A DNA stretch of 64,000 nt from an uncultured Acidimicrobiia bacterium (GCA_963786955.1 CAWBAT010000006.1:512001-576000); one strand, 5' to 3'; numbered from the stretch's first letter, positions 5,757 to 48,380 are shown. The notes: a model not told the origin generated them from the letters alone. A program made the numbers and translations.

Positions 5757-7874
5757 CTATCGTTGCGGTCTGAAGGGAATCCCAAACATGGCCTGGACTT
5801 CGACAGGGTTTTCTCCCTGCATAGCAGGTTTAAACTTCCACTGTTTCAAGGCTTCTAGGGCACGCTGATCGAGAACGGGGTTCAGACTACGAATCACGCG
5901 AATCTTATCAACCCCTCCATCCTTGCGAATCACCGCATAAAGAACGACCAATCCTCTTAGTTTCGAAAGTTCTTCGTCTTCCGATCGTCCCGGATCGACT
6001 TTTCGAAGCGGTCTGGGTTGAATCAGAGCGTCTCCAGCAGCGAGTAAGACTTGTGAGCCCATCGTCTTCGAATTGGCTGAGACCTTGGCAGTCGCTGAAT
6101 TATTCTCAGCCATTTCCGAAAACTGCATGGTCCAGCGTCCCGCAGGCATGGGGATGAAAACGGTATAATTACGTTTCCCAGAAAGGACTCCATAGACTCC
6201 AAGGCCTGCCCCTCCCGTGCGCCCTTCGAGGACTGTGATGTTATAGGATTCTCCGGGATCTTCAATTGTTTCCATCTCGGTAAAACCACCTGGCGCGCGG
6301 GGCCGTTTGCCCGGGCCGGCTATCCCTGCCCCTCCCGTATTTGAGCCACCCTTGATCGAAAGTCCGGGAACCTGGATTGAGGCGATATTTCCTCCTCCGC
6401 CGTATCCACTGCCTGTTCCGCCCGTTCCCCCTCCACCCGGTACACCGCCCCCAAGAGTTCCGCCCTCCTCCCCATCCGGGGACCCCTCCCGATTGCCTTC
6501 AGGAGAAATGGAAAAACCACCCGTCTTGTTTCCTGGTGGGACTTTCAGCCCTCCCGGACCCGGAAGCCCGGGGTTCGCACTGAGCACGACTAAGTTGTGC
6601 AGTTGATCGGAATCTCCCCCGATCGGAGCATTTACCAGCGGGCCTGGATTTCCCGCATCTGAAGCAATGGCCCACTCCGCCGAAGATCCGACGGGAACAA
6701 CAAGCTTCGCCTGCATATTGACAACTTCTGTCTTGGCAATACGCAGCTCTGAAAGATTCTGATCAATATTCTTAAGTTCCGCATCTGGAGGCCGTAGCTG
6801 TGGTACAGCAGCTTGCGGATTAGGAGTTAGAAGAGGGTTCAGCTTCTTGTGGGCAATTTCAATCGATTCCAGCTTGCTTTCCGGGACATTCCAAACCACC
6901 ATATTCGGCACTTTGACTTCCTGTTTGATCTGAACTTTCGGTGTACTCGGCTGGACGATTGTCTGGGTTTTGTTGTCCGCTTCTCGAGGTGAAGATTGGA
7001 TCGTTTGAGTCGGGTGGAAGGAAGTGCTTCCTTTTGGAGGCCTGAGTTTTGGCTTAGTGCCTGCCGGGTCCTTAGGACCGTCACTCGACGACTTCATGGC
7101 CGGGAGCATGTCCGACGGTTTGTAGTAGGTTATCTGGTAATGGCGTTCCAAATCGCTTTTGGTCAACCGCAGTGGTTGGCTGAAGGAGACTCCGGAAAGA
7201 CCCCATATCAGGTAAACTACCATGACGTGGAGAAACACTGATGCCATCACGGGCCGAGTCGGATAACCACCTGGAGCCCAAACGTCAGCGAGGATCTCAT
7301 CTGGGTCGAATCCTTCTTTAATTCTGATGGAAGTTAACAGGTTGTCAAGATCGTAATACTCACCATTGGGTGCATTTTGCTCCAAATTCACGTCTTCGGA
7401 GACGGCCATCCTTTCCTCGTCTTCGAAGAGGACCCTCTCATTCTCCCCTTCGGGAAGGGCCATCTTATTCTCCCCTTCAGAAAGGGCCAAAATGTTCTCG
7501 CCTTCAGAAAGGGCCAAAATATTCTCGCCTTCGGAAAGGGCCAAAACATTCTCGCCTTCGGAAAGGGCCAAAACATTCTCGCCTTCGGAAAGGGCCAAAA
7601 TGTTCTCGCCTTCGGAAAGGGCCAAAATATTCTCGCCTTCGGAGAGGGCTAAAACATTCTCGCCTTCGGGAAGGGCCATCCGGTTCTCGTCCTCGGAGAT
7701 GGCCAACTTATTCTCGTCTTCAGCGACGGCTATCGTATTGTCGTCCTCATCTTCGAAGGAGGCCGCTTTTTTTGAGGCCAGTACATTATTCCAATGTTTG
7801 GCACAATCTGGACAAATTTCTCGCCTAAATTGGTACCACTTCAGGTTACGGCTACAACTTTGACAGATGGCCAT
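5757..7874 (-). CDS. TonB-family energy transducer with N-terminal zinc ribbon and acidic nonapeptide repeats
   Basis: TM segment ASVFLHVMVV (SxxxH), Pro/Gly-rich linker and TonB_C domain (GLVVLYAVIRKDG...LDQRALEALKQWKFKPA); N-terminal CxxC...CxxC. Confidence 0.85.
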   Translation of the reverse strand: MAICQSCSRNLKWYQFRREICPDCAKHWNNVLASKKAASFEDEDDNTIAVAEDENKLAISEDENRMALPEGENVLALSEGENILALSEGENILALSEGENVLALSEGENVLALSEGENILALSEGENILALSEGENKMALPEGENERVLFEDEERMAVSEDVNLEQNAPNGEYYDLDNLLTSIRIKEGFDPDEILADVWAPGGYPTRPVMASVFLHVMVVYLIWGLSGVSFSQPLRLTKSDLERHYQITYYKPSDMLPAMKSSSDGPKDPAGTKPKLRPPKGSTSFHPTQTIQSSPREADNKTQTIVQPSTPKVQIKQEVKVPNMVVWNVPESKLESIEIAHKKLNPLLTPNPQAAVPQLRPPDAELKNIDQNLSELRIAKTEVVNMQAKLVVPVGSSAEWAIASDAGNPGPLVNAPIGGDSDQLHNLVVLSANPGLPGPGGLKVPPGNKTGGFSISPEGNREGSPDGEEGGTLGGGVPGGGGTGGTGSGYGGGGNIASIQVPGLSIKGGSNTGGAGIAGPGKRPRAPGGFTEMETIEDPGESYNITVLEGRTGGAGLGVYGVLSGKRNYTVFIPMPAGRWTMQFSEMAENNSATAKVSANSKTMGSQVLLAAGDALIQPRPLRKVDPGRSEDEELSKLRGLVVLYAVIRKDGGVDKIRVIRSLNPVLDQRALEALKQWKFKPAMQGENPVEVQAMFGIPFRPQR
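7395..7750 (-). repeat. 27-bp coding tandem repeat (EGEN[VI]LALS), about 7 near-perfect plus about 6 degenerate copies
   Basis: Unit ttctcgccttcggaaagggccaaaa(c/t)(a/g) is visible on the + strand. Confidence 0.95.
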
Positions 7875-31445: not shown

Positions 31446-31850
31446 TCAGAATAGTCTTTTCAGTTCGTTCAGTTCCTGCAGCCACTTCTTTCTCGGCACT
31501 GGACTGGACAATTTGCGACCGATCTCTTCTCCAGGGGTCCAAACCTGAGACAAAAAGTAGAATTCGCCATAACGGTTAAAAACCAATTTCCCGTCAACCG
31601 AGATCCGGTTAGCCTGAACAGCATTTTCATGACTACGCAGACCGATGACCATCTGTGCTTCGGATGACGACCATCACCGGGCTCTTAGTTACAACGGAAT
31701 ATTCTCCCGCTGGAAGGGACTGACCTCCAACACGAAACTCAAAAGGAATATTTGTCTTTACCGCGTGGACGACTGGCCATAGACATTCGGTCCAGCCAGC
31801 ACGGCAAACAATGAAACGGCTACTAACAACCAACTAATTTTCTTACTCAT
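31446..31850 (-). CDS. Small secreted beta-rich protein of a family common in Acidobacteria (frameshifted)
   Basis: RBS and signal peptide MSKKISWLLVAVSLFAVLAG; NIPFEFRVGGQSLPAGEY...KLVFNRYGEFYFLSQVW. Confidence 0.65.
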
Positions 31851-32219
31851 TTGACCTCTCCTTTTTTGTTGAGGCTACGACCGAAGCTAGCCGTTTACCG
31901 GTTAAATAGGAGTGGCGTTGGTTGCGCCTCCAACGGCTTCCCATCCTCTGATTCAGACCCAATCTGCTTAAGAGTTTCAACTGGATTGATTAACCAATTG
32001 GTTCATCTGCTCGTATATGGCAAGAAGCCTGAAAACATTTCAGAAGGGCGAGTCAATTTATTTGCAGCAATGGTTTTATTAGACTCCCAAGACGCAAATA
32101 ATGCGTTGAAACCTCCACCGGGTCCCCTTTTTCATTCATTGGTTATTGTGCGAAGTGGGAGGATTTCTTTCATCGATGAGATTGCGAATTCTACCCGCTC
32201 CCGAAAAGAGTTTGAGTTA

Positions 32220-32470
32220 TTCCCCTCCGGCGGAGGGGTGTAGGGGTGGGTCGCCTTTTCTGATCCGTGGACTTGCTCAGACTAAGACACCCCCCCGCAA
32301 CCTGCGCCTGCTGCCCCCTTCAAAGCGGGCCTTTTTCAATTCCCCTCCGCCGGTGGAAAGCTGTGAAGTAATTCAATTTTGGTTCCCCTCCTTGGATAAG
32401 GAGGGGGCTAGGGGGTGGTCGTAAGTGTTGCTGGATTAGCCCCCTGTAGTCCCCCTTAACCAAGGGGGAC
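32220..32470. repeat. Cluster of CCCCTCC...GGAGGGG palindromes (family D)
   Basis: cccctccggcggagggg and cccctccttggataaggagggg; similar at ~10490, ~35865-35975, ~41545 and ~50420. Confidence 0.6.
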
Positions 32471-32703
32471 ACTTGCAGAGAAACATCGAACCAATTCATT
32501 CACACCTCAGGGATGCAATTAGAAATTCGTTTTTGTGCAAGGGAATGGACGCAGATCCGCCTTTTGGTGATTGGAGGGAAAGCTTCTTTTTACTGCAGGG
32601 GCTTTATCAAAGCCCCTGCCATATCCGGCTTGTCATACTTTTTTCACGCATTCCTTCGACAACGGGGCGCTTAGATCTCTTTGTGATATCTTTAAGAAAG
32701 ATA

Positions 32704-32794
32704 CTTTACTGGCTCACTTTTTGTGTGCTAATTTGCTCTCATTATTTTTCCAGAAAAATCATGCCTGCCTCATTTGTGATTCACTGAGTTCGCG
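32704..32794 (+). promoter_or_regulatory. Conserved ~90-bp upstream element, copy 1
   Basis: Aligns nearly ungapped with 36474-36563 (ctttactggctcactttt...tttccagaa.aatcat..ctgcct...ctgagttcg). Confidence 0.6.
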
Positions 32795-32883
32795 ACTCCA
32801 GGCCAGGTGACTCTTACTTTCGATTGACTGAACGTGGTCTTCCCTCGGGAAGCGGATTGTGCCCAATAAGAAGGAGATGGAAC

Positions 32884-35782
32884 GTGCCGGATATTGTATT
32901 CACAAAGTCTGACATCCCATTTTGGGCGGCCGGGGACGGCGTACTGCGCCTTCACGCAACTATCCCTGATCTGACAAAGCAGCTTGTGCCGTCCAATAAA
33001 GATCTGTTTAGCCTGGATTTCAACTTTGGAGGAACCCAACTGTTTTCCATTGGTGCTTTCGATACCATGAAGCTGGGCATTAAGGCTGGCACGGATGTGA
33101 GCATCATCCCTTTGTGGCCATCAACATCTGCAGACCGCCTCAAGATAATTGATAACTACGGCCTCACAGGCTACTTCGCTCCCAACGTTCACGGTGATCG
33201 CCTGCTTCTCGTCTTAACAGTCGGTGCTAATGCTAATGTAAATCTAAGTACACGTTTTCAATACTCGATTTTAACTGCCAGTGCCTCGCTGGAGGCGGGG
33301 GCAGATGCAAGCTATGCATTGATCCGTTCCTATCCATCCACTACACCGGCAGTTAATCTGCTTACTGATTTTTTCAGGGCTTTTCGCCTGCCTGCAAATG
33401 TGACAGCGCCTCTCGACCAAGATGAGGTAATCGTCTTCGAATACGGTGGCTACCTCAACTTTAATGCGGGTCTTGCCATGGGCTATCGAATCAACGGCGC
33501 ACCTTCATTTGAAATCGGCCAACTGCAGCTTGCCGAAAGATATGCCTTCAGTGTGATGGGCTCGCTTAGACTCGGAGCCAGCGTTGCCGGACGGTTCAGA
33601 ATTGAAACACGAAACGGGTCGGGGGATGGCTGGGTACGGGTGATTGTTCGCAAGAGCCGTGCAGATGCAATCCGGGTGGCTGCACATGTATCGGCTTCAG
33701 TTAAATTCCAAAAGGAAGGGCTGCCAGAATCTGCCGACGATTTCCTCGGCGCGGTGATTGGGCTGAATGCAAAAAACTGGCTCAACATGTTCGCCCAGAT
33801 TCGTAAACTCACGGACTTCAACAACCTTGAGGGCTATTTGGACAATCTGGCCAAGTCATTCATCGAGGAATATACGGGGAAAACATTTCAGGCATTGGAA
33901 GACAAGACCCAATTGGATGAAGTGATTAATAAAATCGGCAGAGTGGTAGACGAATACAACAACCTCGGCGACCATGCTGTGGCGCTTTTTGACCGGTACT
34001 TACAACGTGGTGACGAAAGCAGTCGACAGCAAGCTAGACCAAGCACTTCGTACCATCAAGAATGCCGCTTCTTGGGACAACCTGAAGGGACGAATTGACG
34101 ATACCCTCTGGGATGTCGTCCAGCAATTGACAGATGGTGATCCACTCGGGTGGATGCTGGGCCATATCAATATCAACGGTCAAGAGATGAATTCGCTGGA
34201 CGAGCTCAAGAGTCGTGCCGACAAGGCCCTCGACCTCGTAAGAAATCTGGCGCATAAGGAGATAAAGGATCTCATTGCGCTGGCAAAATCAAAGTTTCCC
34301 TTGGACCATTTCATCCAAAAACTGGGGCATATCGACTGGCTTCAGCTAAAGAATATGACCGATCTGCGACTCACCGGCTTCGTTGAACGCCTGATTGGAC
34401 AATCCATTCAGAAACTCAGTAACTCAGAGTTAGGCGACGCGGTACGGAAATTTCATCAGGTGCTCGATTTAATCGACCAGTTCAAAAATACCTTCTACGA
34501 CAAACTCAAAGACACGTTCAATCAATCGTTTCAATTCCAGTTACATGCGGAGTATAGCCGGGCTAGTGAAAGAGATGCTCTCATCGACTTCGAGCTCGAT
34601 CTCACCACTGCGAAAGGCAAAGAACTGATGAAGCGTGCTGGTCACGGGGACTTTGCGGATGTGCTCGCGGGCTACGACACTGGCGTCGTCAAGCTCAAAC
34701 AGGGTATTTTGACGCACAAAGTCACGAGACAGAGTCAATTCGCGGTCAATATTGTGGGCTGGCACATGAACTGGCATTATCAAGGTCTCGACCGCTTGAT
34801 TATTGAAGCCGAGCAACGCATCCAAGCCGAGGCCGGCGGCCAGTTGACCATTAACACGAAGATGGACCTACAGAAGGAACGCGAACGGAAACGAAACGGA
34901 GAGCGTGTATATACCAACTTTCTCCTCCGATTCATGGGAGAATCGCGGGGCAAGCTCGAGTTTGACAAGGATAATCAGGCCTACCTGATCGATGTGATCA
35001 CACGAATGGGAGCCCGTTATAACCTTGTCTTTCAGGACCCAAACACAACAGCTCAGGAGCTATACCAGTACCTCAGCTTCGCCGATGACTTCGGCCTAGC
35101 CACTTCAGACGAGGCGGTTGAGGCCGCTCTCAAGCCCCTTCTACCGACTGACGCACAGGGCAATTTCGGAGAAGTCTCTATCTTTTACGATGTCCGCTTC
35201 ACCGAGGAGGGTCTGCGGTCGCTCTTCACTTCACCCTTCACTCAAGACGATGAGAGAAATCTTCGCCGCGTAATGCGTTTAATCGTGTTGGCTAACTACC
35301 TCAATGAAGGACCATTTATGGCTAGGCGCGGTTGGTGCTATTGGACACCAGGCATCCAGTCCATTTGGCAGACAGAGGGTGCAAACTTCACGAATCATTC
35401 CAATTTAGAATTCAAGCCAATTGCACCGTCTCCGCTCAGGAATCTAACGGCTCCGCTGAGCGTCACGCTCGATCGAGCTGGGCTCCAGCAGCTGGACACG
35501 CTTTACAGGATTGAGGAAAGCATGGTGAAAGGCGTGCGTAATCTCTCGAATCTCTTACAATCACCAGGTAAGTTGAACCCCCACGATCTGGAAAAAGCGC
35601 TCGGAGATTTCGGCAAGGCACTGACAATATATGATAATTTTGACGAAGGAGAGAATTCGATCTTCGGCATACTGGACAAGCTTATTCATCGAGATGCCGG
35701 TGACAAACCATACCGGAACTCCAGCCTCACTCTCACCTCAAGAGTGAACAATCAGAAGGTCACGAAGATGCTGATTGCTTAG
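32884..35782 (+). CDS. Large (~965 aa) hypothetical protein with beta-rich N-terminus and helical middle (frameshift ~34000)
   Basis: AAGGAG RBS and GTG start; ORFs 32824..34098 and 33974..35782 join at DRY/YNVVTKA; no recognisable family. Confidence 0.7.
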
Positions 35783-36473
35783 ACCTGACCTAGCCTGAGT
35801 GCTTAACTCCATCAGCTCGCAGCAATCACCGTAGCCGGGCACGTTCCCACTTGGTGGACTTAATCTCCCTCTCCCCAACGCGGGAGAGGGCGGTCCGTCT
35901 TTCGGCGGACCGGGTGAGGGAATTTCAATCTTCATAGCTCCCCTCCTGTGTTTAAGGAGGGGATACAGGGGTGGTAAGTTTTGCCTTTGGGAGGCAGGCA
36001 TCCTACCGGCTTATTATTACTAACACCCCCTAAAACCGATTCACACAATTCAATCCCTGGTCTTATTCCATCCCTCAGCAACTCCATCCATCCCACCAGA
36101 AAAAATAGCGATGAAATGTTTCGGCAGGAAATGTCATACATCAATGTAATGGGTAAGCACCTAGGCAAATGACTATTGGATTTGACCCCGGTGTTCTATC
36201 CGTGCCATCCCATTAAACCGAGAGCCTTGAAAGCAATTCGGTTGCCGTAAACTGCACAAAATGAAGGAGGGAATATGCCCACTTGGCCAATAGTACTCAT
36301 AATTTTCACTGCCGAAACCCTCTTCCAGGTCTTGTTTTTTCAATGGAATCTTCTTCATTCAGTAAGTCGGCCCGAGGTTGTACGTCTTAGCTATGTACAC
36401 AATGTCAAGAAACCGGGCAGGATTGTCTCAAAAGCTGAGATCAAAAACTATTTGCGATGTCAATAAAAAAGTT

Positions 36474-36563
36474 CTTTACTGGCTCACTTTTCATGTGATA
36501 GCTTACACACATAATATTTCCAGAATAATCATATCTGCCTTTCCCTTATTTGCTGAGTTCGTG
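36474..36563 (+). promoter_or_regulatory. Conserved ~90-bp upstream element, copy 2
   Basis: Homologous to 32704-32794. Confidence 0.6.
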
Positions 36564-36844
36564 TTTTACGGCTAGGGTGCCCACACAACGATGAAATGAA
36601 TTCGCCCGACCAGCGGCGATTCCGCATTGCTCTAAGTGCACAACCTCAGCCTGCTTACAGGACCACTCTCTCAAGTGGAGAGCGAGCAATGAGGCACCTT
36701 TTCGGCTGACGAGGCATTAGCAAGGCTTTCCTCGCAAAGTACTTGGATTCGGTCACCATCACCTGTTTGGCTTTACTTTCAAAAAGTGCTCATTCATCAG
36801 AATGGGCATTATCTAACATCTATTGACATGAAGGAGTTAAAAAC

Positions 36845-38521
36845 ATGAGTAACGGCAAGAAAGAAAAAAAAGACTGGTTGGTCATGGTTTACTTGGCGGG
36901 TGGAAGGGACGTCAGTGATGAAGCTCTTGAAAGCCTGCTGCGGATGAAGCACGTTGGATCGACAAAGAACGTCGACGTTATCGCGCAGTTCGATTCAGGA
37001 AGCGAAGGCACATTTACTAAGCGATATGAGCTCAAACCTATCGAGAATGCCCTGGATACCAAAACCGTCTTGCTACAGGCCTGCTCAGAACTTCACGATT
37101 CTACCGATCCCTCCGACTACACACTGGCTACATTTTACTTTGAACGCTTGATGAATATTTTACCTGACGGACTGAGGAAGAACTTTCAGAGCAAGCATCA
37201 AGCAAAAGAAATGATCGAATTACTGAAGCATTATCCTTACGGGTTTAAGAATTTAATCCTTGACTTCATCTTGGATGCGGATGTAGTCGGTAACATCGGA
37301 GACACAAATGCCGGCGACCCGAACATTTTCGGGGAATTTGTTCAATGGGCAAAGGAGAACTATCCTTCTCATTACACCCTGGTCATTATTTGGGGCCACG
37401 GCAGCGGCCTTTCTGTTGCATGGGATTTTCCCGCTCCGCAATCCTCTGCTTCCCCGGAAGCTCTAACTATTAGAGATCTTTCAACTGCCCTTAGCAGGAT
37501 CAAAACCCACTACGACCCCCGTGAGAGACCCAAAATTGCAAAGGGCAAAAAGGAGAACGATACCAATGGGATGCCCATAGTTGATATTTTGGGATTCAAT
37601 TCGTGCTCGTTAGGAATGATCGAGGTTTACCGTCAGCTACAGAAGTTCGTGACTTACGGTGTGGCATCCGAAGGATTTACTCCCAAAACCAGTTGGCCTT
37701 ATGAAAAGATCCTGAAAGCACTTAACGATGAACCTGAAATGGTACCAGATGCTTTCGCCATGAAAATTGTCGACGAATACATCAACTTCTACGAAGAATC
37801 GGTGGAAGCGACTGAACGACGTCAATCAGCACTACGCAAAATTGGGATACGAGACTTGAATGCGGGTTTAGACTTGAATAAGAGGCCCGCTCTGTCCAAG
37901 GGACCTGGTTTGTCAAAGGGACCCGGCTTGTCCAAAGGACCTGGCTTGTCCAAGGGACCCGGCTTGTCCAAGGGACCTGGCTTGGGTCCAGAGGGGGAAC
38001 CAGAACTGAGAGGCATTGATCTTTCCGTGTGCAAATTAGTGGAAAGCATAAAAGTTGAAGAAAAAATGACAAAACTGGTGGAATTGCTGCTCAAAAAGCT
38101 GCAACCGAAATTGGATCACGGCGTCTTTGGCGCCATTCTGGCCGCACATGCTATCAGCCAATCGTATTTCAACAAGGACTTTACAGATTTATATGATTTT
38201 TGCCGAGTTCTGAAAAGTTTCGGTGTTAATCAGGATATTGAGAAAGCTTGTGAAGACGTCATGGGAGCAATAACCAAAATGCGCATAAAAAATAAGAAAA
38301 ATTATGTTGGCGATGATGTCCAGAATTCAAACGGGGTTTCAATCTATTTCCCCTGGGACGATTGGGAAAGAAAAGATGTGCTTAGCAAGTATAATGAGAA
38401 TAATCTAGAATTTCTTAAGAATACAAATTGGCATACTTTCCTCGAAACTTACCGAGATTTGGTGCACAAGCTCGAGGAAAAAAAAGACCCCTTCTTGCTC
38501 TCTCTTGCGCAACATCCCTAA
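36845..38521 (+). CDS. Clostripain-related cysteine peptidase (C11, clan CD)
   Basis: WLVMVYLAG, VIAQFD, NAGDP..F..FVQWA..NYP, IIWGHGSG (His), DILGFNSC (Cys)..IEV, VASE, SWPY and GVSIYFP; AAGGAG RBS; no signal peptide. Confidence 0.85.
   Translation: MSNGKKEKKDWLVMVYLAGGRDVSDEALESLLRMKHVGSTKNVDVIAQFDSGSEGTFTKRYELKPIENALDTKTVLLQACSELHDSTDPSDYTLATFYFERLMNILPDGLRKNFQSKHQAKEMIELLKHYPYGFKNLILDFILDADVVGNIGDTNAGDPNIFGEFVQWAKENYPSHYTLVIIWGHGSGLSVAWDFPAPQSSASPEALTIRDLSTALSRIKTHYDPRERPKIAKGKKENDTNGMPIVDILGFNSCSLGMIEVYRQLQKFVTYGVASEGFTPKTSWPYEKILKALNDEPEMVPDAFAMKIVDEYINFYEESVEATERRQSALRKIGIRDLNAGLDLNKRPALSKGPGLSKGPGLSKGPGLSKGPGLSKGPGLGPEGEPELRGIDLSVCKLVESIKVEEKMTKLVELLLKKLQPKLDHGVFGAILAAHAISQSYFNKDFTDLYDFCRVLKSFGVNQDIEKACEDVMGAITKMRIKNKKNYVGDDVQNSNGVSIYFPWDDWERKDVLSKYNENNLEFLKNTNWHTFLETYRDLVHKLEEKKDPFLLSLAQHP
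37892..37981 (+). repeat. 18-bp coding tandem repeat, 5 x LSKGPG
   Basis: ctgtccaagggacctggt / ttgtcaaagggacccggc / ttgtccaaaggacctggc / ttgtccaagggacccggc / ttgtccaagggacctggc. Confidence 0.95.
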
Positions 38522-38733
38522 AAGGGTAGAAACCCTTAACTAGGTTAATGGTTGAACTCGAATTGTCAGTTGGCTAACTCTCGTTGACAGTCATTTTGCT
38601 AAGGGCCGGTTGGAGAAGTGTGTTGCATCTGTCTTCAGCTGTAAATCGATGCCTTACTTTAAACGAATTGCAGGCAAGACGCCTACAACATAAACTAAAA
38701 AAGGATGATTTCTTCAAACAGCCTCCTATCCCT

Positions 38734-41700
38734 ATGGGACGCCCTCCATGGGTCAGTTGGAGCAAACAGTTGCCTAAACTTGAACAGAGGTACAGAAAAG
38801 CGCTGGGGTGGCTGGTCACATCTGCGGCCTATTTTTTTTTGTTGGTACCCGCCTCCGTCTTTTCATTCTCCCGAAGTGAAGCCTCATCACGCCCTGAACC
38901 GAACTTAGGACGTCATGTAGATTCTCCAATTGAAAAAGATCATCAAACTTCTCGGGCGTTATTCCTTGGAACAACGATAGAGAAGGTCCTGCTAGAAAAC
39001 GATAGCCAAAGCTATCCTTTGGAACTTTTGCAGGGAGTATTCTGTCGCACGGATATGTATTCTACCAATCACAATTTAATTGTATCCGTCGCTTGGCCTA
39101 ACCATCAAAAATCGATGGAATGGAACGTTCCGAGACGCGTTCTTACACCCGTTTCATGGATTGCCGATGATCCAGGAATCTACCTGTTGGAGGTTCGTCC
39201 CTCCGGGGTAGGACGAGCCTCCGGTGACTATCGCTTAGAAATAACGGGGTTCAGGAAAGCTTCCGAACAAGACCAAAAGCAAGTGATTGCGTCTCGAATG
39301 CTTTCTGAAGCGGAACAGCTCCGTCAACAGTGGAATAAAGAGTCTCTCCTAAACGCCATTCGCAAGTACGAAGCGGCATTTGGAGTCTGGCAAGCTATTG
39401 CAGACCAGCAGCTACAAGCTGCAACGCTTAGAAGCATCGGCGAAGTATGGGAAATCTTCTCCGAAGAAGAAAAGGCTCTCAATTGCTTTACCAGTGCCCA
39501 GAAATTGTACAAAGGCCTGAATGACAAAAAGGAGGAAATCGCTACTCTGAACACCATTGCTGGTTCATATATTTATAGAGGAGAAAATCAAAAGGCTCTC
39601 GATATTTCCAAGCTGACCTTGGATATGATGAGGACAGTCAGTGATAGCTTGGAAAATGCCCAGGCGTTTCACAACCTAGGTGCTGCTTACTATGGTATGA
39701 ATGACATGCGAAAAGCGAAGGAGGCTCTAAATGAGGCCTTGCGACTCCGCCAGGAAATGTCAGATCCTTCCGGGCAAGCCGAAACTATTTTATACTTGGG
39801 TTACATTCAACATGCTCTTAAGAATACCGTTGAGGCCGAGGAATATTATCAACAATCTCTCAGTATCTGGCGTGAATTAAGGAACCCGAGAGGAGAAGCT
39901 CTCGTACTAGTCGCGCTTGGACACCTTTCCAACATACTTGGAGACAGCCAAAAGGCCCTCGGCTTTTACAATCAGTCTATTGGAATTTTCCAATGTATTG
40001 GGGAAAAAACGGGTCAGGGCACTGCCCTTGTGGGGGTCGCATGGCTTTATACTGCTTTGGGCGAAAAAGAAAGGGGTCTTGTTTTTTATTTGCAGGCTCT
40101 GGATCTGATACGGCACGTAAAAGATGTGGCATTGGAAGGACAAACTCTTGACTTCATCAGTAGCATCTATGCGGATATGGGAGATTATAAGACCGCGTTG
40201 ACATATTCCCAGCAGTCTGTTCAAGTCAACCGGAAAATATCTTCAGCCTTGGGGGAATCCTATGCGCTGGCAGACATGGGCAAGATTTATGAATCTTTAG
40301 GGATGAAAACCGAAGCGATAAGAAATTATCGTCATGGCCTTGAGTTGTCCCAAAAGGGAGGAGATCGCCACTTGGAAGGACTTTTGCTCAACGCAATTGG
40401 TCACAACTTTCACGACTCGGGACAGATAACGAAGGCGCTGCCTTACTACCAGCAGGCTCTCAGATTACAGCAAGATTCTAAGGATGCGGTTCGCCAACCT
40501 TCCACACTTTACAACCTAGCTCGGGCGGAGCGTGATATTGGGAACCTTGAGCAGGCCATTCGCTATGCTGAACAGGCATTGGAAATCACCGAGTCTTTGC
40601 GAGGCAAAGTCGCAAGCCGCGATTTACGCTCCTCGTTTGTCGCCTCCGTACATCAACAATACGAATTAACCATTGATCTTCTCATGCAAATGCATCGGCT
40701 GCATCCGTCAGAGGGTTACGCAGCCAGGGCATTTGGTATCAGCGAACGAGCACGCGCCCGTTCGCTGCTGGAGAGCCTTGCTGAGACCGGCAGCGATATT
40801 CGAACTGCTGCCAGCCCCTGCCCTCCTGGAACGACGCGGGCAATTGCAAATTTATTGAACACCAAAGCGGAACAACAGATGCAATCCTCAGAAAAAAAGT
40901 CCAATGGGACCAAAGATGCAGCCCTTACTCTCGAGATTGACAAACTCACTACCCAATACCAACAAGTCCAAGGCCAGATCCGCTCTGAGAGTCCCCACTA
41001 TTCCAGCTCTGGCTCAATTGCAGCCTTTAAGCTTAAAGAAGTCCAGGAGCTAATCCTCGATGACGGCAGTCTCTCTTGCTGGAATTCGCTCTGGGAGACG
41101 ATCAGAGTTATCTATGGGCGGTAACAAAGACAGGGATGACTTGTCATCAATTGCCAAAGCGTACAGTAATCGATCAAACAGCTCGGCTTCTCTATGGCCT
41201 GCTCACTGCTCGCCATCCTACGCCAGATGAAACACCCAAACAGTATCAGGCCAGAGTCAAAGATTCTGATGTTCAATACTAGGACGCAGGCGGCTGCATT
41301 GAGCCAGCTGTTGTTGGGACCTGTGGCCGACCAATTAGGAAGCCGCAGATTACTCATCGTTGCTGAAGGTGCTTTGCAATATGTGCCGTTTGGAGCGTTG
41401 CCGTGTCCGAAGGAACAAGGAACAGGGAGCATGGAGCAAGGGGGAACGGGCCCAGAGGACCAAGGGACAAGCGGTAGAATAAAGGGTCAAGATTCAAGGG
41501 AGAAGGGTCAGGCCAAAGAACTGAAACTGCAGGGCGACAATTACCCCTCACCCCACCCCTCTCCTCCTGTTTGGGACGAGGGAGGAAGGCCTCTAGTTAT
41601 TGACCACGAAATTGTCAATCTGCCGTCGGCTTCGGCACTAGCTATGTTGCGCAAGGAGACTGTCAACCGCCAGCCAGCCAGCAGGTCAGTGGCCGTATTG

Positions 41701-42444
41701 GCTGATCCAGTCTTCGAAGCAGATGACCCACGGGTCTCGGGCCGCGGAGTGCCTAGGCAAAGTCCAAAGCCGACCATAGTGTCTCATCGCAAGTCTACGG
41801 CAGCAACTCTCAGTGATCTTCAACTTTCTCTGCGGGACGTCGGGATGCTCCAGGGTGGCTTGGGCATCCCTCGGCTACTTTCCACTCGCCAGGAAGCTGA
41901 AGGTATTCTGTCTGTAAGTCTCTCAGGGACTTGCCTGAAGGCAGTCGATTTCAAAGCCAGCCGTGAGACCGCCGTAAGTCTTGAATTAAGCCAATTCCGA
42001 ATCGTTCATTTCGCCACTCATGGCCTTTTGAACAACCAGCATCCGGAACTCTCCGGCCTGGTCTTATCGCTAGTAGACGAACAGGGGAAACCCCAAAACG
42101 GTTTCCTTCGACTGCATGATATTTACAATCTAAATCTACCAGCCGATCTGGTCGTGCTGAGCGCGTGCAACACGGGCCTGGGCAAGGATATTAAAGGGGA
42201 AGGGTTAGTCGGCATTGTCCGTGGCTTCATGTACGCCGGCGCAGCCCGGGTAGTCGCCAGTCTATGGAAGGTGGATGATGAAGCCACGGCGGAATTAATG
42301 AAAAGATTTTATCAGCAGATGTTTCAGGAACGCCTTTCGCCTGCCGCGGCTCTGCGAGTTGCTCAGGTCGAGTTATCGCAACAGAAAAAGTGGCGCTCGC
42401 CTTATTATTGGGCAGGTTTTGTGCTCCAAGGGGAATGGAAGTGA
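38734..42444 (+). CDS. TPR-CHAT caspase-like protease with N-terminal hydrophobic segment and PPC-like domain (frameshifts ~41075 and ~41280)
   Basis: About 10 TPRs, ERARARSLLE, LLIVAEGALQYVPF, HFATHG (His), LVVLSACNTG (Cys), SLWKVDD and PYYWAGF. Confidence 0.9.
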
Positions 42445-42711
42445 TTGTAATGTGTCAGCTTGTTTCCTTTTTGAAAGTCACCACCCGCTCATCCCCCCAG
42501 TTCAACAACTTCTCGTACGCTTAAGAATTAGTCCAATCAATGAGAGTTAGCGCTGGTCGGTATTCCTGCTTGCTTCCCTTTACCCACCTCCTTTATCCAG
42601 TTTTCTTGAATACTTGTGAAATGTTTTGCTGCCGCGACTCATTACCAAATGAAGAAGGTAATACGCCGATAGCTGATCAGAAGCTATCGGATAAGATCAG
42701 AGGTAAGAGCC

Positions 42712-43851
42712 ATGGAATACGAGAGAATCTCTCATTACGAAATTATCCGGCCACTGGGAGCTGGTGGCATGGGCGCCGTTTTCCTGGCAGAAGATACCCA
42801 GCTCAATCGCCGCGTAGCCATTAAATTGCTGTCAAAAGATTTCACAAAAGATGAGAGAGCAAAAGACCGGCTCTTCTCAGAGGCACGAGCTGCAGCGCAG
42901 CTGGAACACCCCAACATCTGTTGCATTCATGAAGCCATTGAAGAAGAGCCGTCGTGCATCGTGATGGAATATGTAGAAGGCGAGACCCTCTCAGACAAAA
43001 TTAATGGGCATCCTTTGAAGATAAAAATGGCCTTAGATTTTGTTATTCAGCTGGCTGACGCGTTGGAAGAGGTGCACTCCTGCGGGATGATTCACCGGGA
43101 CATAAAGCCCAGCAACGTTATCGTCACTCCTCGCGGACGGGTTAAACTGCTCGATTTCGGTTTAGCCAAGACGGTTCGTAACATTAACGCGGACAGAGAG
43201 AAAACGGTTACTCAAAACTCCGTGACAAAGTTTGGCTCGATCGTGGGTACTGTGGCTTATATGTCTCCCGAGCAAGCAACAGGCCATCCCGTGGATTCAC
43301 GCAGCGACATCTTCTCCCTCGGCGCGCTACTTTATGAATGCCTTACGGGTAAACGCCCATTCTCCGGGACAACGACGATGGAAGAAGGGGCCAATGTGAT
43401 CTATGCCAATCCGGTGCCACCGTCGCATTTCAATCGAGCAGTGCCTTCTGAATTGGACCGGATAACTCTTAAGCTGCTGGCAAAAAAGTCTGAGTCACGC
43501 TACCAGTCAGCTGGCAAACTCATCCAGGACCTTCGCAAAGTCCATGATAGTTTGCCTGAGGAAGAATTTTGCCACGGTCCCAGTATCTGCGAAGAATCAG
43601 CGGATAAGATTACAAGAATCTCGACCATTTTGGGAAAAGGGTTAGCGGGCGCATGCTATTCCCAGACTACTTTTTCTCTCGCGCATGTAGTCGCGTGGGA
43701 CACGCTCTCAGTCTGCTTCTCTAGCAGAGCGTTCAAGGTGATATATGAGTGGTATCCTGCGGCTTCAGGAAGAACCGCGATGGCATTTCTCCATGGCCCG
43801 GATATGAGTTCCTATGCAGGAAATAGACTTCACAAGCTGAAGCTAATATGA
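42712..43851 (+). CDS. Hanks-type Ser/Thr protein kinase
   Basis: GAGGMG, VAIK, HRDIKPSN, DFGLAK, YMSPEQ and SDIFSLG; the C-terminal tail is uncertain. Confidence 0.92.
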   Translation: MEYERISHYEIIRPLGAGGMGAVFLAEDTQLNRRVAIKLLSKDFTKDERAKDRLFSEARAAAQLEHPNICCIHEAIEEEPSCIVMEYVEGETLSDKINGHPLKIKMALDFVIQLADALEEVHSCGMIHRDIKPSNVIVTPRGRVKLLDFGLAKTVRNINADREKTVTQNSVTKFGSIVGTVAYMSPEQATGHPVDSRSDIFSLGALLYECLTGKRPFSGTTTMEEGANVIYANPVPPSHFNRAVPSELDRITLKLLAKKSESRYQSAGKLIQDLRKVHDSLPEEEFCHGPSICEESADKITRISTILGKGLAGACYSQTTFSLAHVVAWDTLSVCFSSRAFKVIYEWYPAASGRTAMAFLHGPDMSSYAGNRLHKLKLI

Positions 43852-44109
43852 TCTAATTTGGTCATTATTTTTTCCGCTCAAATGTCTTCTTACTCTGGGA
43901 TTATCCTGCAGACATTTACTCAAGCTGATTCAAACATTGCTCCTCTTGCCCTAAAAAAGAGTGGGATCCGCGGCTTGGAAATTGTGCCGGACGCCGAACG
44001 CAGCGCGAAACACATACTCTTTTTCCGATCCCAAGAGCCAGCAACTAGCACTTTAATTTTTCGCGGGAGACCGAGCTAAATTTCAAAATCAAATAAGGGG
44101 TATTAAACT

Positions 44110-44676
44110 TTGAGTAGCACTCCCTTTACGAAGAAAGAGTTCACTCAAGAAGCCTTCGATCAGTTGCTCGCCTGGCTCAATTCGGACCGGGAACAGGCCG
44201 GAAAAAAATACGAAGAAATTCGCAAGCGCTTAATCACGATTTTCACGTGTCGAGGCTGTTTGATCCCGGAAGACTTGACTGACGAAACGATTGACCGTGT
44301 CGTCATGAAGATACCGGATCTTGCAGGAAGCTATGTTGGAGATCCAGCCCTCTATTTTTATGGCGTGGCAAATATGTCTTTCATGAATACATCCGAAGAA
44401 TTCCCACTCCGGTCCCACCGCCCGTCCTTCATCCCACAGTAGAAGTGGAGCAAGCAATACTCTTGTTTGGAACAGTGCGTGCAGCAGTTGAATTTTAAGA
44501 CTCGCAGTCTGATTCTCGACTACTATTCGGATGAGGGTGGGAAAATCGATCACAGGAAACAACTCGCCGGCAAACTCGGCATGGAACTTAATGCCTTGAG
44601 AATTCAAGCCTGCCGAATTCGGGCTGTTTTATTTCAATGTGTTCAGGAGTGTTTGAAAAGCCACGAGATAGCATGA
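44110..44676 (+). CDS. ECF-type RNA polymerase sigma factor (frameshifted ~44375-44460)
   Basis: FDQLLAWL...AGKKYEEIR.RL..F..RGC...EDL.DETIDRV; CVQQL....R.LI.DYY...R..LA..LG...NALRI.A.RIR..L..CV..CL. Confidence 0.75.
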
Positions 44677-44808
44677 AATAGAATGTGTTTTTTTCGCATA
44701 TACAAGTGAAGGGAGTATACGGGGGCTGCGAGTACAAGTCAGGTGAATTCGAATCGGTTTCTTCAAGAATGATAAAAACCTTAGACGATTCCTTAAAGGG
44801 AATAACTA

Positions 44809-45762
44809 ATGGAAATCGATATGAACTTGGAAGAAGCAATAAGAGAATACTTGCTTGGGAAAACTTATCTCAAGGAGAACAGGAGAAACTTGAAGAGCAA
44901 TTGATGACTCAGGATGACGCTTCACTCAGTGCTTATTCATGAGGACGAGCTGATTGACGAGTATTTCGGGGGAGCCTGCCGGCGTCAAGAGAGAGAAGCC
45001 TTTGAAAGGCATTTTTTGACAGCCCCGGAGCGGCGTCAAAAGCTTGGGTTTGCACGTTCACTCACGAAGTACGTTGAAGCTTCCCGCCAACAAAAGAGCC
45101 CCCTTACTCAGCCCTCGTTCGTGAAAGCCTTAATGGCTTTGTTGCGCGTACAACAACCAGCCGTTCAGTACTCTTTCGCGGCGATAGCGCTGGTGTTGAC
45201 CGTTGGTATTTCCTGGCCAATTGTAGAAGTCCGAAGATTGCAGACTGAGGTTGGCGCAAATGCGGGACCACCAGACTACGTCTCTGATTGCGTTAATGGT
45301 CTAAGCCAACAAATAAGCGAAGCACAGAAGCGGAGCCAGGACCTGATGGAACAGTTAGGGCAACAACAGCAGAGCCGGTCCGCCTTGGAAGAGCAGCTGG
45401 CATCAATGCAGCGACCCGCCATTGTTTCGTTCCCTCTGACTCCCGGGCTGGTACGGGATTTCGGGTCAATGAAAAAGCTGATTATTCCTCCTGCAGCCAA
45501 GCTGGTGGAGCTAAGCCTCGCGGTTGACGGCGAGAATTACGATAATTATCGTGCGGCCCTACAGGGGGCCAGTGGCGAGGAGGTTCTCAGCCTGAACAGG
45601 TTGAGCATTCACGAGGAAAAATGGGATCGGCATTGATTGTGATGCCGATTCCCGTTGGACTTTTGGGTCCGGGAGATTACATTGTCAAATTAAGCGGCAC
45701 TGAAATCTGGTAACTCTTTCGAGGATATTGGCAAATACTATTTTCGTGTTTCAAAAAAGTAA
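44809..45762 (+). CDS. Membrane-anchored anti-sigma-like protein (frameshifted)
   Basis: IREYLLG.LSQGEQEKLEEQL...EDELIDEY...FERHFL..PERRQKL.FA; TM segment, coiled coil and C-terminal beta domain (LTPGLVR...GDYIVKLSG...YYFRV); directly follows the sigma gene. Confidence 0.6.
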
Positions 45763-45946
45763 GAACTCTGTAGTAGGCATTTTCGGACTGCGCGCGGGAG
45801 CGTTGACCCCCTGCGCACGCTCAATGAACGCGCGGCGAAGCGCGCATTCCACCTTTAGACGGCCAAACCACCAAAAATACGTTGCCGGATTTATGAAGCG
45901 CAGGATTTAGCCTACAAGCTAATCCAATCAGAAATCCGCAATCCAA

Positions 45947-48380
45947 TCACCAATCCAAAATCAGACTGCTATCTTTTTCCCCCTCGTTGTCCCGACGAAT
46001 GAGATGGCGAAGCGACGAATTACTTCCCCCTCCTCTTTGAGGGGCAGGAGCTTGCCGCTGCTCAACTTGGCTTCCTCGATACCCGCCACTATCATAACTA
46101 CGAGGCGCGCGCTCAGTCACGATTGGTTTGCTCATTTGGAGCGGAGGTCGTTGAGGCTGATAGGTCGGCAAGTACTGCCGTGCCGGGGTTGGTGTATATT
46201 GACGAACCGGGGGTTGAGACGTCTCCGGTCTGGAATACCGATTCATTTGATTAGAACCCTGGCTCTGAGAGGTTGTTCCCGAAGCGGAAGGGAATCGATT
46301 CCAATTTCGGTTCTCGACTGGCGATTGGTAAAGTGTCCCACGCCCATTTCCTTGAACCGATTGGGTCGAAGGGGAGTTTGAGGGAGAATACACTCTAGTC
46401 GAAGATGGAAAGTTTGAGGGAACTGAAGCGGATGGTATCCGTTGTCCCTCCACATTGGACGGTCCATTGAATCGCCTCCAATCCGTTCGTGATGGGGAAG
46501 CGTCGGGAACCCTTGTGGCTGCTGTGTTCCGGTCCGCCCAGAACCATACGTCCCTCGAGATGGGGTCGGGGGACCGGCGGCACCTGAACCGGGGCCACGC
46601 TGTTGCGAATTTTCGGTCGACGTGCTCCTTGAATTCATCTGCCCATTTCCAAAGCGATTCCAACTCCCGGTGGACGCCGATTGAGCCGAAGAACTGCCCA
46701 TCGAGGAGTAGTTTCCAGACTACGGCTTGGAGCTTGTCGATTTTGGATTCCTTGCGTGACGGCCTCTCTCGTTGCGGTGCTACCAGCCGCAGACGATGCA
46801 GGAGCTATGACAGTGGAACGATTCGAATGCACTATATTCTGCCCGGTTGGAGATTGCGGGTTATACCGCTGCACCATTTGCCGGATCTCAGCCGCATGTT
46901 GATCAAAAGATTGAGGCGCCGCAGCCGGTTGGTTGCGAGAGAAAAACTTTTCCGAACTTGTCGACCGATTGGGCAACGAGGCTGGATTTACAGCCCGATT
47001 TACCGTCCTCAAGCTGTCGCGAGTTGGGACTGCTGGAACGGTTCCAGCCACCAGTTGTGCCTGCCGTAATGTTCTCGCATCCACGGCAGACCGATTGGGG
47101 TTCGCCATTCCTCCTTTTACAAATTCCTCCGTGTTCATTGAATTGACCGATCTCCGCACTTTCTCATTATCCAAAGCCGATTGAACATTTGAGTAGTACG
47201 GACGCGATGCCCGATCCGCCAGTGGAGGAACACCGGAAACGTTATTAATATTCGTGATGTTATGGATATTCGTCACGTTCGTAATGTTGACGGCATCATA
47301 ACCATGGCCGTGACGCGTGCCGTACCAAGGGTAGTAATGATCACACGGGCCGGTGGGTAACCATCCAATCGAGTTGTAGCCGTACCCAAAGCCAAAGCTC
47401 CAGTTTTGCCCTCCAAAACCAAATCCCAGGAACGAGACATAGGCAGGAGCCCAAACGGGATGATAGGAGGGATACACAGGGCCAGGCCACCAACGCCAGT
47501 TCCCACCATGAACGAACCATCGTCCATAGTGGTAAGGAGCCCATCCCCAAGGCTCGCTGGAAACCCAGGTCCAACCCCAATAAGGCTGCCAGTTCCAACT
47601 TCCAAGAGTGTAGGGGGACCAGGAACTATCCACATAATTTGGCGCCCACGTCGAGCCGTATCCGGGGAATTCGTCCCAGCTTCCGTAACGATCGAGATCA
47701 GACGCACCCGTATAATAGCGATTCGCATATTGCCAGCTTTGAGCGTCACTGATGGCATGATCGCGCTCTTGGTTCCAGCGATCCCAGTCGTCATTTCCGG
47801 GCGCCTTGGCAATTCGATACTGCGCGTTTTCCGTTCCTCGGACAATGATTTGACCGTTCTTGCCAATACGCGTGCTTCCTTCAGGCGTCTGGATTTCGGC
47901 CTTGCCTTTGCGACAAATGATTTCGGTTTCAGAATCCGAGTTCACCTGTACTCGGTAGATACCCTCTTCCAATGGACGAAGCGCGGCGTTGGGAGTGTCG
48001 ATCTCTACGTCGGCTTCATTGCCCTTAAACAGCGTGAAATTCAAACGTCCTTGGGCAACCTGGATTTGAATGCGATTGTTTGAGAGTGTGGCGATCCTGG
48101 CTTCAGTTCTTTGATCTAGGCGAATGATGTTCGAATGATCGAGTTGTATTTCAGCGCGAGAATTTGGGCCTGTAGAGATCTTGTCTCCCTGGACCAGCGG
48201 AGCATTTACCGTTGTGGCCATCCAGTCGCCGCTATCGCCCCGCATGGTGGAGACTTCCCCATTAATGAGACTCACACGTGCAACTCCGCTTTCCTGCTCG
48301 TCGCCTGCCAGCACCTTTGACACTGTGAAACAGCTGATCGATAAAACCAGCATTGCTATCCACAACATTCGCGTTTTCAT
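45947..48380 (-). CDS. Secreted FecR-domain/DUF6600 protein with long low-complexity tail (3' frameshifts)
   Basis: Signal peptide, ARVSLINGEV...N.PLVQGD, DLDRYGSW, W.PY..G.W, EPWGWAPYHYGRW and WAPAYV. Confidence 0.8.

Follow-up and report, generated by a model that had tools for sequence, protein, structure and literature searches.

A recurrent acidobacterial cassette of C11 peptidase, TPR-CHAT protease, ECF-like sigma factor and anti-sigma, probably a split relative of the DdvA/DdvS switch

The closest described counterparts of the locus presented here couple TPR-CHAT proteases to sigma factors. In Myxococcus xanthus, the transmembrane anti-sigma DdvA has its TPR-CHAT domain in the periplasm, and DdvS is its ECF sigma factor; in the model put forward for DdvA, autoproteolysis by the CHAT domain is followed by RseP cleavage, and anti-sigmas of the DdvA kind are reported there from Myxococcota and one Comamonas only (PMC11506125). 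The type III-E Craspase module combines Cas7-11 with the TPR-CHAT protein Csx29, Csx30, Csx31 and an RpoE-like sigma factor (PMC10028731). Further afield, CHAT, subtilase and carboxypeptidase genes are reported from the context of the ECF54 group (PMC8999054), and there is precedent for the activation of a toxin by a C11-type protease (PMC9308784).

The locus comprises six genes, all on the plus strand, which span positions 32884-45762 of a 64-kb window (the whole stretch of DNA that was analysed) from an Acidobacteriota genome. They are consecutive and co-oriented and carry the catalytic motifs quoted in the first-pass annotation, though at least 10 frame breaks interrupt them. At its core are four genes that form a recurrent cassette in Acidobacteriota and encode a C11 peptidase, a TPR-CHAT protease, an ECF-like sigma factor and an anti-sigma; a search of the literature returned no published description of such a cassette. 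It is independent of CRISPR, as had been proposed: no CRISPR array is present anywhere in the window, no Cas or defence families were found among the scanned neighbours, and PADLOC matched the cassette proteins to zero defence families. The neighbours in the window and around nine C11-type cassettes are housekeeping genes or genes of unknown function.

Members of the sigma family were found in 52 of the 401 genomes sampled from the phylum, often in multiple copies. Among 40 fetched loci, a TPR-CHAT gene adjoins 29 of the central sigma genes, and a recognisable anti-sigma is present in 35 of 44 sigma cassettes; since the top sigma matches determined which loci were chosen, and many of these are from related genomes, the counts are not independent. 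The core of TPR-CHAT, sigma and anti-sigma is hence recurrent in Acidobacteriota, as anticipated, while the 11 central sigma genes (of 40) with no TPR-CHAT nearby indicate that the protease is not obligatory for the sigma family. At nine of the 40 loci (10 genes) C11 is the immediate neighbour of TPR-CHAT, regardless of how sigma and anti-sigma are arranged, and in a quick tree the sigma subclade holding the orthologs of the window (SH-aLRT 84) has C11 in 9 of its 11 rows. A scan of the phylum put its best 14 C11 places all within 6 kb of a sigma place; at 15 C11 loci unlinked to sigma, a CHAT gene lies next door in six. C11 is thus not the unusual addition it had been taken for: it marks a conserved sigma subtype or subclade, where it always adjoins TPR-CHAT, and pairs with CHAT away from sigma as well.

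The C11 (clostripain-family) cysteine peptidase is encoded at 36845..38521 (plus strand) by an intact frame of 558 aa. Its Peptidase_C11 domain (PF03415) scores 85.9 bits against a cut-off of 25.8, its translation shows the motifs IIWGHGSG and GFNSCSLG, and all 12 cassette C11 proteins compared have the same G184, H185 and C254. It has no signal peptide; only six codons are open upstream of its ATG, and a hydrophobic segment is absent from nine of ten cassette C11 proteins of other genomes. Within the gene, an 18-nt tandem repeat (5.1 copies, 37893-37984) encodes (GPGLSK)n. The protein thus resembles the clostripain/PmC11-type enzymes in its Pfam domain, well above cut-off, and its conserved His/Cys dyad, but departs from them in having neither signal peptide nor lipobox, in carrying the (GPGLSK)n insert and in its fixed place beside a TPR-CHAT gene. 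The NCBIfam clostripain model scores it at 23.9 bits against a cut-off of 550, and a sequence search of the Protein Data Bank gave no match at E 0.01 or better.

The TPR-CHAT protease (38584..42444, plus strand) is caspase/separase-like and comes from a single gene. The two frame breaks in it, near 41070 and 41300, compensate each other: intact orthologs, used as tblastn queries, align in frame 1, then frame 3, then frame 1 again, and the ortholog in a congener (G001) is open for at least 1092 aa. CHAT (PF12770) is matched at 220.2 bits against a cut-off of 24, alongside TPR families, and the motifs VHFATHG and VLSACNTG contain a His and a Cys that are invariant or nearly so across 24 TPR-CHAT proteins. 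The N-terminal hydrophobic signal or anchor segment, noticed earlier, proved to be conserved, a signal-like segment being present in 22 of 28 unfused TPR-CHAT proteins; the C-terminal anchor of most C11-paired relatives is missing from the protein of the window. The protease is accordingly predicted to be exported and sometimes membrane-tethered, and with its signal peptide it should act outside the cytoplasm, beyond the reach of an RNA-guided partner. The predicted locations of C11 and TPR-CHAT are on opposite faces of the membrane; a partnership between the two would therefore have no obvious point of contact. With a model of a TPR-CHAT ortholog (pLDDT 80.9, pTM 0.74), Foldseek recovered Csx29 (8eey_B, 3.4e-15), human separase (4.3e-14) and DdvA (8rw5, 8.1e-14), a ranking that does not set DdvA apart from Csx29 or separase; at the sequence level, a Protein Data Bank search with the CHAT domain found neither DdvA nor Csx29.

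The sigma factor (44110..44676, plus strand; frame breaks near 44340 and 44455) is a divergent ECF-like protein with 75% identity to the intact 201-aa ortholog of another congener, G002. The copy in the window gave no sigma match in a Pfam search. Its orthologs match the NCBIfam sigma70-ECF model below the curated cut-off (the best reaches 41.2 bits on TIGR02937 against 42.9) and score 17-19 bits on Sigma70_r4_2 against a cut-off of 25.7. In the Protein Data Bank, a profile of 30 sequences finds ECF sigma factors as its top matches, at E 1.4e-4 (2q1z) to 9e-3. The anti-sigma gene (44806..45762, plus strand) is pieced together across at least four frame breaks. Its single-pass product has an N-domain predicted to be cytoplasmic, followed by one membrane helix and by ~120 aa of conserved periplasmic domain. 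The G002 ortholog matches zf-HC2 at 25.8 against a cut-off of 22.2, and 31 of 33 relatives have a single hydrophobic segment; in an alignment of 22 anti-sigmas both the N-terminal and the C-terminal domains are conserved, and no Cys is invariant, or nearly so, in the N-domain. In three of the 40 loci (L082, L087 and L100), anti-sigma N-domain, membrane helix, TPR and CHAT are fused in one protein of 1174-1222 aa, which is the DdvA architecture within the same sigma family. Such fused forms support the idea that TPR-CHAT and the anti-sigma are functionally linked.

The remaining two genes differ in standing from this core. The Hanks-type Ser/Thr kinase (42712..43851, plus strand) has an intact kinase domain (Pkinase, PF00069; 167.3 bits against a cut-off of 31.7) with the motifs GAGGMGAV, VAIK, HRDIKPSN, DFG and SPE. 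It lies inside the cassette only in this genome (G000) and G002, and is a local insertion between CHAT and sigma in this genus; in two loci of the same sigma family (L107 and L109), large kinase-TPR proteins occupy the place of TPR-CHAT. At the upstream end, 32884..35782 (plus strand) encodes a 965-aa protein that belongs to a large family of uncharacterised proteins; one frame break, near 34001, interrupts the gene, and residues 1-965 align in two frames with the intact 965-aa homolog P0002. The protein has neither a signal peptide nor any match in Pfam or NCBIfam, and none of the 120 listed among its 187 homologs has a Pfam domain. Its AlphaFold model (mean pLDDT 70.1) shows long beta-hairpin sheets, and nothing but membrane beta-barrels matches it structurally (best Z 14.1, rmsd 10.7 Å), in every case at high rmsd (5-13 Å). 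The gene is adjacent to the cassette in all three genomes of the genus, 1,062 nt ahead of C11 in the window; the copy in G001 is frame-broken, and its first ~320 residues are missing. tblastn with the protein found no match in the 40 sigma loci or in G007, and C11, CHAT and sigma are absent from the fetched DNA at 29 of 31 loci of its family, of which 14 only have the full 10 kb on both sides. The 965-aa protein is thus a local neighbour outside the cassette core. The six genes, put forward as one signalling system in the first-pass annotation, are therefore not a single conserved system: C11 does co-occur with TPR-CHAT and sigma elsewhere, but homologs of the 965-aa protein mostly do not.

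The upstream element ascribed to both the 965-aa and the C11 genes does exist. Its copies at 32677..32770 (plus strand, ~110-200 nt upstream of the 965-aa start) and 36448..36540 (plus strand, ~300-400 nt upstream of that of C11) align by blastn over 94 nt with 77.7% identity (E about 1e-12) and are the only two in the genome; the alignment holds an 18-nt exact core, CTTTACTGGCTCACTTTT, which is also found at both equivalent places in G002. With its copy of the C11 upstream element, the 965-aa gene may have come under the control that acts on C11.

Read against the observed gene content, synteny, catalytic residues, fold and fused forms and the predicted topology, the locus is probably, if by no means certainly, a split relative of the Myxococcus DdvA/DdvS proteolytic sigma switch with a cytoplasmic partner protease, C11. 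We infer the signal, cleavage steps and regulon of such a switch as follows. The TPR-CHAT protease would sense a periplasmic cue and cut or unmask the periplasmic domain of the anti-sigma; an RseP-type site-2 protease (an RseP-like M50 protease is encoded in the genome) and cytoplasmic proteolysis would then release the sigma factor. Once freed, the latter would activate its own operon and other targets, the autoregulation being an assumption, since the upstream regions of 44 cassettes yielded no common promoter motif. C11 would be the dedicated cytoplasmic-side partner of TPR-CHAT and may degrade the remaining anti-sigma fragment or serve as an output protease.

The proteases could instead both be outputs, with an ordinary ECF sigma/anti-sigma pair sensing envelope stress by its own means and driving a secreted TPR-CHAT and a C11 peptidase with some other role (protein turnover, matrix processing or antagonism, for example). 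Target genes often lie within ECF operons, which would suit such an arrangement, as would the central sigma genes without TPR-CHAT (11 of 40) and the C11-CHAT pairs without sigma (6 of 15 loci). The ECF54 context, with its CHAT, subtilase and carboxypeptidase genes, points the same way (PMC8999054). However, the fusions in the same sigma family place the protease on the anti-sigma, as in DdvA, and a regulatory part therefore fits better than that of cargo; we regard this alternative as unlikely. Quite improbable, in our estimate, is a cascade of all six genes, in which CHAT would free sigma to drive C11 and the 965-aa protein, and C11 would process the latter into a gasdermin-like effector, perhaps pore-forming, for defence or cell death. 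It would account for the element before both genes, kept in G000 and G002 and confined to two copies in the genome, for the adjacency of the 965-aa gene in three of three genomes of the genus, and for large beta-sheets that match only membrane beta-barrels in a protein that yet has no signal peptide; a C11-type protease activating a toxin also has its precedent (PMC9308784). Set against it are the family loci and sigma loci in which the respective partners are absent, the truncated copy in G001, the lack of PADLOC hits and the high rmsd of barrel-like matches to a model of pLDDT 70.

The frame breaks (one in the 965-aa gene, two each in the TPR-CHAT and sigma genes, at least four in the anti-sigma and at least one in the kinase) raise the further question of whether the cluster is a decaying pseudogene remnant, a copy without present function. 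This would agree with the contrast between at least 10 breaks in 13 kb here and none in ~8.5 kb of rpoB and rpoC, with the truncated 965-aa gene of G001 and with the dispersed repeats that flank the locus. However, intact rpoB and rpoC, taken together with public short-read contigs that differ by single-base indels at 12 listed places and agree perfectly with further stretches of the region, indicate that the breaks are mostly consensus errors. For instance, base 44455 is missing from an independent contig, and without it the sigma frame is open over 44295-44672; this is the one break of the at least 10 that such a contig is shown to correct. The C-terminal end of the kinase stays uncertain: a public contig has five single-base indels across 43631-43800, and applying them gives a 337-aa frame without fixing the true end. 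Moreover, the breaks occur as pairs that compensate each other at a spacing of 70-230 nt, and non-coding DNA (44686-44751) contains them too; the C11 frame is fully open, every catalytic motif is retained, and G002, also a few-contig assembly, has its breaks at other places. Hence, we give little credence to the pseudogene explanation.

The reading of the locus as a split DdvA/DdvS-like switch can be set beside each of the described systems. With the type III-E Craspase it shares the genetic linkage of a TPR-CHAT protease to an ECF-like sigma factor, Csx29 (8eey_B, E 3.4e-15) being the best structural match of the TPR-CHAT model, and the III-E sigma model NF041236 faintly matches a sigma ortholog (20.4 bits; cut-off 100). 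It differs in that the window has no CRISPR array and the scanned neighbours no Cas domain, in the signal peptide of its TPR-CHAT protein and in having a membrane anti-sigma, not Csx30, as the sigma inhibitor. The kinase gene directly before sigma in the window recalls the ECF sigma factors that are under neighbouring Ser/Thr kinases; however, the kinase-linked ECF groups and ECF54 are described as having no anti-sigma (PMC8999054), whereas the cassette has one. The likeness to DdvA/DdvS extends to an ECF-type sigma gene adjoining that of a single-pass transmembrane anti-sigma, a predicted periplasmic TPR-CHAT protein with a separase/craspase-type fold and His-Cys dyad, the fold matches to the DdvA chains 8rw5 and 8rot (E about 1e-13), the fusion of anti-sigma and TPR-CHAT at 3 of 40 loci of the same sigma family and an RseP-type protease in the same genome. 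At the sequence level there is no match to DdvA, and DdvS is absent among the matches of the sigma profile. The N-domain of the cassette anti-sigma is without the conserved Cys of the CHCC zinc site that the cited account gives for DdvA (PMC11506125), and no CBASS or CRISPR island adjoins the cassette. Unlike in DdvA, the window and most relatives encode TPR-CHAT separately and with a signal segment of its own, the anti-sigma bears a small conserved periplasmic domain in its place, and a C11 peptidase has been added.

Six consecutive genes on the + strand between positions 32884 and 45762 had been read, from sequence alone, as one dual clan-CD protease signalling system, and these coordinates proved right. 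The genes encode a 965-aa protein without a family assignment (32884-35782), a C11 peptidase (36845-38521; Pfam, 85.9 bits), a TPR-CHAT protease (38584-42444; Pfam TPR matches and a CHAT match of 220.2 bits), a Hanks kinase (42712-43851; Pkinase, 167.3 bits), a divergent sigma factor (44110-44676) and a membrane anti-sigma factor (44806-45762), with a gap of 1,062 nt between the 965-aa gene and the C11 gene. The His/Cys and kinase motifs quoted in the first-pass annotation are all found in the translations, and its observation is confirmed as a whole; its interpretation is partly supported, with the kinase and the 965-aa protein falling outside the conserved cassette. The window copy of the sigma factor has no Pfam sigma match, and TIGR02937 gives 41.2 bits for an ortholog, slightly less than its cut-off of 42.9. 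A profile of 30 sequences searched against the Protein Data Bank retrieved ECF sigmas as its top matches, namely Rhodobacter sphaeroides RpoE (2q1z, E 1.4e-4) followed by Mycobacterium tuberculosis SigL. The anti-sigma ortholog from a congener (G002) exceeds the zf-HC2 cut-off (25.8 vs 22.2 bits).

At least ten frame breaks interrupt the six genes: one near 34001 in the 965-aa gene, a compensating pair near 41070 and 41300 in the TPR-CHAT gene, two in the sigma gene, at least four in the anti-sigma gene and at least one at the end of the kinase gene. An alternative genetic code was ruled out as their cause because the in-frame stops are of mixed types. In the same genome, rpoB and rpoC have uninterrupted frames of 1439 and 1401 aa, respectively, which points to an error rate that is uneven along the genome. 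Contigs from four public runs were used for the indel comparison alone, the runs themselves containing only 0.05-0.14 of the sampled words. Over several stretches of the locus these contigs are identical to the window; elsewhere single-base indels set them apart from it at 12 listed places, of which four lie in non-coding DNA. Removal of base 44455, as in one of these contigs, leaves the sigma frame open from 44295 to its normal stop. Given these indels in otherwise identical contigs and the reopened sigma frame, we read most of the breaks, only one of which was thus checked against an independent contig, as consensus errors in a few-contig assembly; real decay of the cluster, which would make the breaks genuine lesions, appears very improbable. 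If the C-terminus of the kinase is read with the five indels seen in a public contig, its frame would shorten to 337 aa and have no membrane segment.

Using the intact sigma factor of G002 as a query, we detected relatives in 52 of the 401 genomes sampled across the phylum, with up to seven matches per genome, and retrieved 20-kb regions around 40 of the best-matching places. A TPR-CHAT gene adjoins 29 of the 40 central sigma genes and a recognizable anti-sigma is present in 35 of the 44 sigma cassettes that these loci contain, in variable order (TPR-CHAT-sigma-anti-sigma, sigma-anti-sigma-TPR-CHAT and others). At three loci (L082, L087 and L100) the two are fused in a single protein of 1174-1222 aa that combines the anti-sigma N-terminal domain, one membrane helix, TPR repeats and the CHAT domain, the architecture of the Myxococcus xanthus anti-sigma DdvA. 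The coexistence of fused and split forms in one sigma family is, among the genomic patterns seen here, the strongest evidence that TPR-CHAT and anti-sigma cooperate. An N-terminal signal-like segment, with an AxA-type end in some cases, is found in 22 of 28 unfused TPR-CHAT proteins, and in 31 of 33 anti-sigmas a single membrane helix precedes a conserved domain of about 120 aa. The genome also encodes an M50 site-2 protease. A model of an intact TPR-CHAT protein (pLDDT 80.9, pTM 0.74) matched Csx29, separase and DdvA with E-values of 1e-13 to 1e-15; none of the three was found by sequence searches with TPR-CHAT. A complex prediction for TPR-CHAT (residues 62-930 of the protein from locus L078) and the anti-sigma periplasmic domain (150-276), run without controls, scored 0.00 against a mark of 0.32, a value that counts neither for nor against such a complex. 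Across the regions upstream of 44 cassettes, no bipartite promoter motif (a 5-mer, a spacer of 15-18 nt and a 4-mer) stood out: the best occurred in 5 sequences, and 30 shuffles reached maxima of 4-6. A scan for sigma-70-like promoters gave 4 sites vs 4.3 expected.

The C11 peptidase had been regarded as an unusual addition to such a core, a view that its recurrence beside TPR-CHAT across relatives contradicts. In 9 of the 40 loci it is the immediate, co-oriented neighbour of TPR-CHAT (10 genes), wherever the sigma and anti-sigma genes stand. The sigma subclade that holds the window orthologs has 11 rows, and C11 is present in 9 of them (quick tree, SH-aLRT 84). A profile built from 12 cassette C11 proteins, all of which retain the catalytic His and Cys, found relatives in 36 of the 401 genomes; each of the best 14 places is no more than 6 kb from a sigma place. 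Among 15 fetched C11 loci unlinked to sigma, CHAT is adjacent in six and 2.5 kb away in one, two are at a contig edge and six have none. Since the association is seen with or without sigma, C11 and TPR-CHAT, two clan-CD proteases, are by their gene neighbourhoods a recurrent pair in their own right. A hydrophobic N-terminus is absent from 9 of 10 cassette C11 proteins and from the window's own, which has only 6 open codons upstream of its ATG; hence the C11 peptidase should be cytoplasmic and TPR-CHAT outside. A membrane helix at the C-terminus, with a short tail rich in Arg, is found in 10 of 15 C11-paired TPR-CHAT proteins, the window's being among the five without, and in one of 21 unpaired rows, two of which are not intact TPR-CHAT; as the genomes are related, this contrast overstates the independence of its cases. 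It is possible that the helix and tail link TPR-CHAT to C11 across the membrane. Within the window's C11 gene, an 18-nt tandem repeat of 5.1 copies (37893-37984) encodes (GPGLSK)n between the catalytic and C-terminal domains, and the C11 protein of another fetched locus (L077) carries an analogous repeat insert.

The two remaining genes do not share this conservation. The kinase stands between CHAT and sigma only in the window's own genome and G002, and the same place in G007, a genome of a sister genus, is occupied by a primase-polymerase gene and glycosyltransferase genes; judged by its distribution, the kinase is a lineage-specific insertion rather than part of one system. At L107 (10413-13817), L109 (6035-9742) and L101, all fetched from related genomes, the same sigma family adjoins kinase-TPR proteins of 1100-1500 aa, with no anti-sigma or CHAT. 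At the first two, this large protein takes the place of TPR-CHAT beside sigma, so this sigma family may receive kinase control as an alternative or additional input.

The 965-aa protein belongs to a large, conserved and entirely uncharacterised family of 187 homologs, mostly of 955-1010 aa, with no Pfam domain in any of the 120 listed. Of 31 family loci fetched from Acidobacteriota species genomes, with the full 10 kb on both sides in only 14, cassette genes are absent from the fetched DNA of 29; C11, TPR-CHAT, sigma or anti-sigma lie near it in just two, both of the window's genus. The 40 sigma loci gave no tblastn match to the protein, and G007 is without the gene. Clustering of all ORFs of 32 loci revealed no conserved neighbour, only shadow frames of the gene itself and a kinase in 5 of 32. 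From this distribution, the 965-aa protein is a lineage-specific neighbour outside the module, contrary to its earlier inclusion. In a second congener (G001; L009, 7208-9008) a copy lacking about 320 N-terminal residues and split over two frames adjoins folB and a creatininase gene. The structural model (pLDDT 70.1) comprises two blocks of very long beta-hairpins plus helical domains. Foldseek returned zero matches at E <=0.001. All matches from a wider aligner are membrane beta-barrels, led by CymA (Z 14.1; rmsd 10.7 A across 254 residues), yet the protein lacks a signal peptide; the ESM Atlas gave unnamed clusters only, from Acidobacteriota and Myxococcota. The element said to be common to the upstream regions of this gene and C11 does exist: it spans 94 nt (32677-32770 vs 36448-36540, 77.7% identity) and has only these two copies in the genome. 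Its 18-nt exact core lies at both equivalent places in G002, while no alignment was obtained in G001. Its retention in G002 makes co-regulation of the two genes possible in this sub-lineage. No Rfam match was found in 30000-47000 at E 0.1.

The locus is flanked by dispersed short repeats (32355-32510 and 45714-46000) that look like MITE/REP-type elements: the unit upstream of the 965-aa gene, some 150 nt long, recurs in about 40 partial copies across contigs C2-C9 of the assembly (78-93% identity), and the stretch after the anti-sigma gene has 30 genome matches. In the gap before C11, contigs from three public runs diverge from the window at the same few places within 35862-35971, a segment that short stretches of contig C8 match as well; either a small repeat or a variable junction lies here. 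Further tandem repeats include 27-nt units (7421-7749) inside an ORF on the - strand (5757..7874), a 133-nt unit of 1.9 copies (22429-22687) and a 71-nt unit of 2.8 copies (62223-62418). Downstream lie genes for a FecR and DUF6600 protein (46635-48407, - strand), a HisKA histidine kinase fragment (48998-49792) and a sigma-54 activator (50548-51921), with no link to the cassette seen in other genomes.

We consider it reasonably probable that the locus encodes a split proteolytic sigma switch, resembling DdvA and its ECF sigma DdvS, with a cytoplasmic C11 partner; the proteolytic steps are proposed. A more elaborate and rather doubtful version is a two-protease relay across the inner membrane. 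Here periplasmic TPR-CHAT, tethered in most C11-paired relatives by its C-terminal helix and Arg-rich tail, would sense a cue and hand the signal to the cytoplasmic C11 encoded immediately upstream, which would in turn cleave the cytoplasmic domain of the anti-sigma or other targets; in this genus the relay may also control the 965-aa beta-sheet protein via the shared upstream element. Were it true, it would constitute a bacterial caspase-like initiator/executioner pair controlling transcription. More broadly, the locus and its relatives show that the DdvA-like logic is common in Acidobacteriota, mainly with protease and anti-sigma as separate proteins, that a single sigma family has both fused and split forms, and that a further clan-CD protease, predicted to act on the other side of the membrane, has joined one subtype. 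They thereby offer a natural test bed for caspase-like proteases gating sigma factors without CRISPR, and a first genomic context for cytoplasmic C11 peptidases.

In the open-access main texts searched, neither the split cassette nor a C11 peptidase within it is described; CHAT proteins are mentioned in the ECF54 context in a review (PMC8999054). The window has no CRISPR array, and the neighbours of the window cassette and of nine C11-type cassettes include no defence gene, being housekeeping or unknown (thymidine kinase, hydantoinase, permeases, ARPP-1). PADLOC left C11, sigma, anti-sigma, the fused protein and the 965-aa protein unmatched, with hits only to generic kinase (PD-T4-6 and similar) and TPR models. 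Hence, the likeness to Craspase is limited to the fold and the protease-sigma pairing. For DdvA, the authors propose that the periplasmic TPR-CHAT clips itself, after which RseP frees DdvS (PMC11506125); the fused acidobacterial proteins lie beyond the range that this study gives, Myxococcota and one Comamonas. The window locus is not a member of DdvA/DdvS, since its TPR-CHAT is unfused, no Cys is conserved in the anti-sigma and a defence island is absent; in logic, DdvA/DdvS is nonetheless the closest system.
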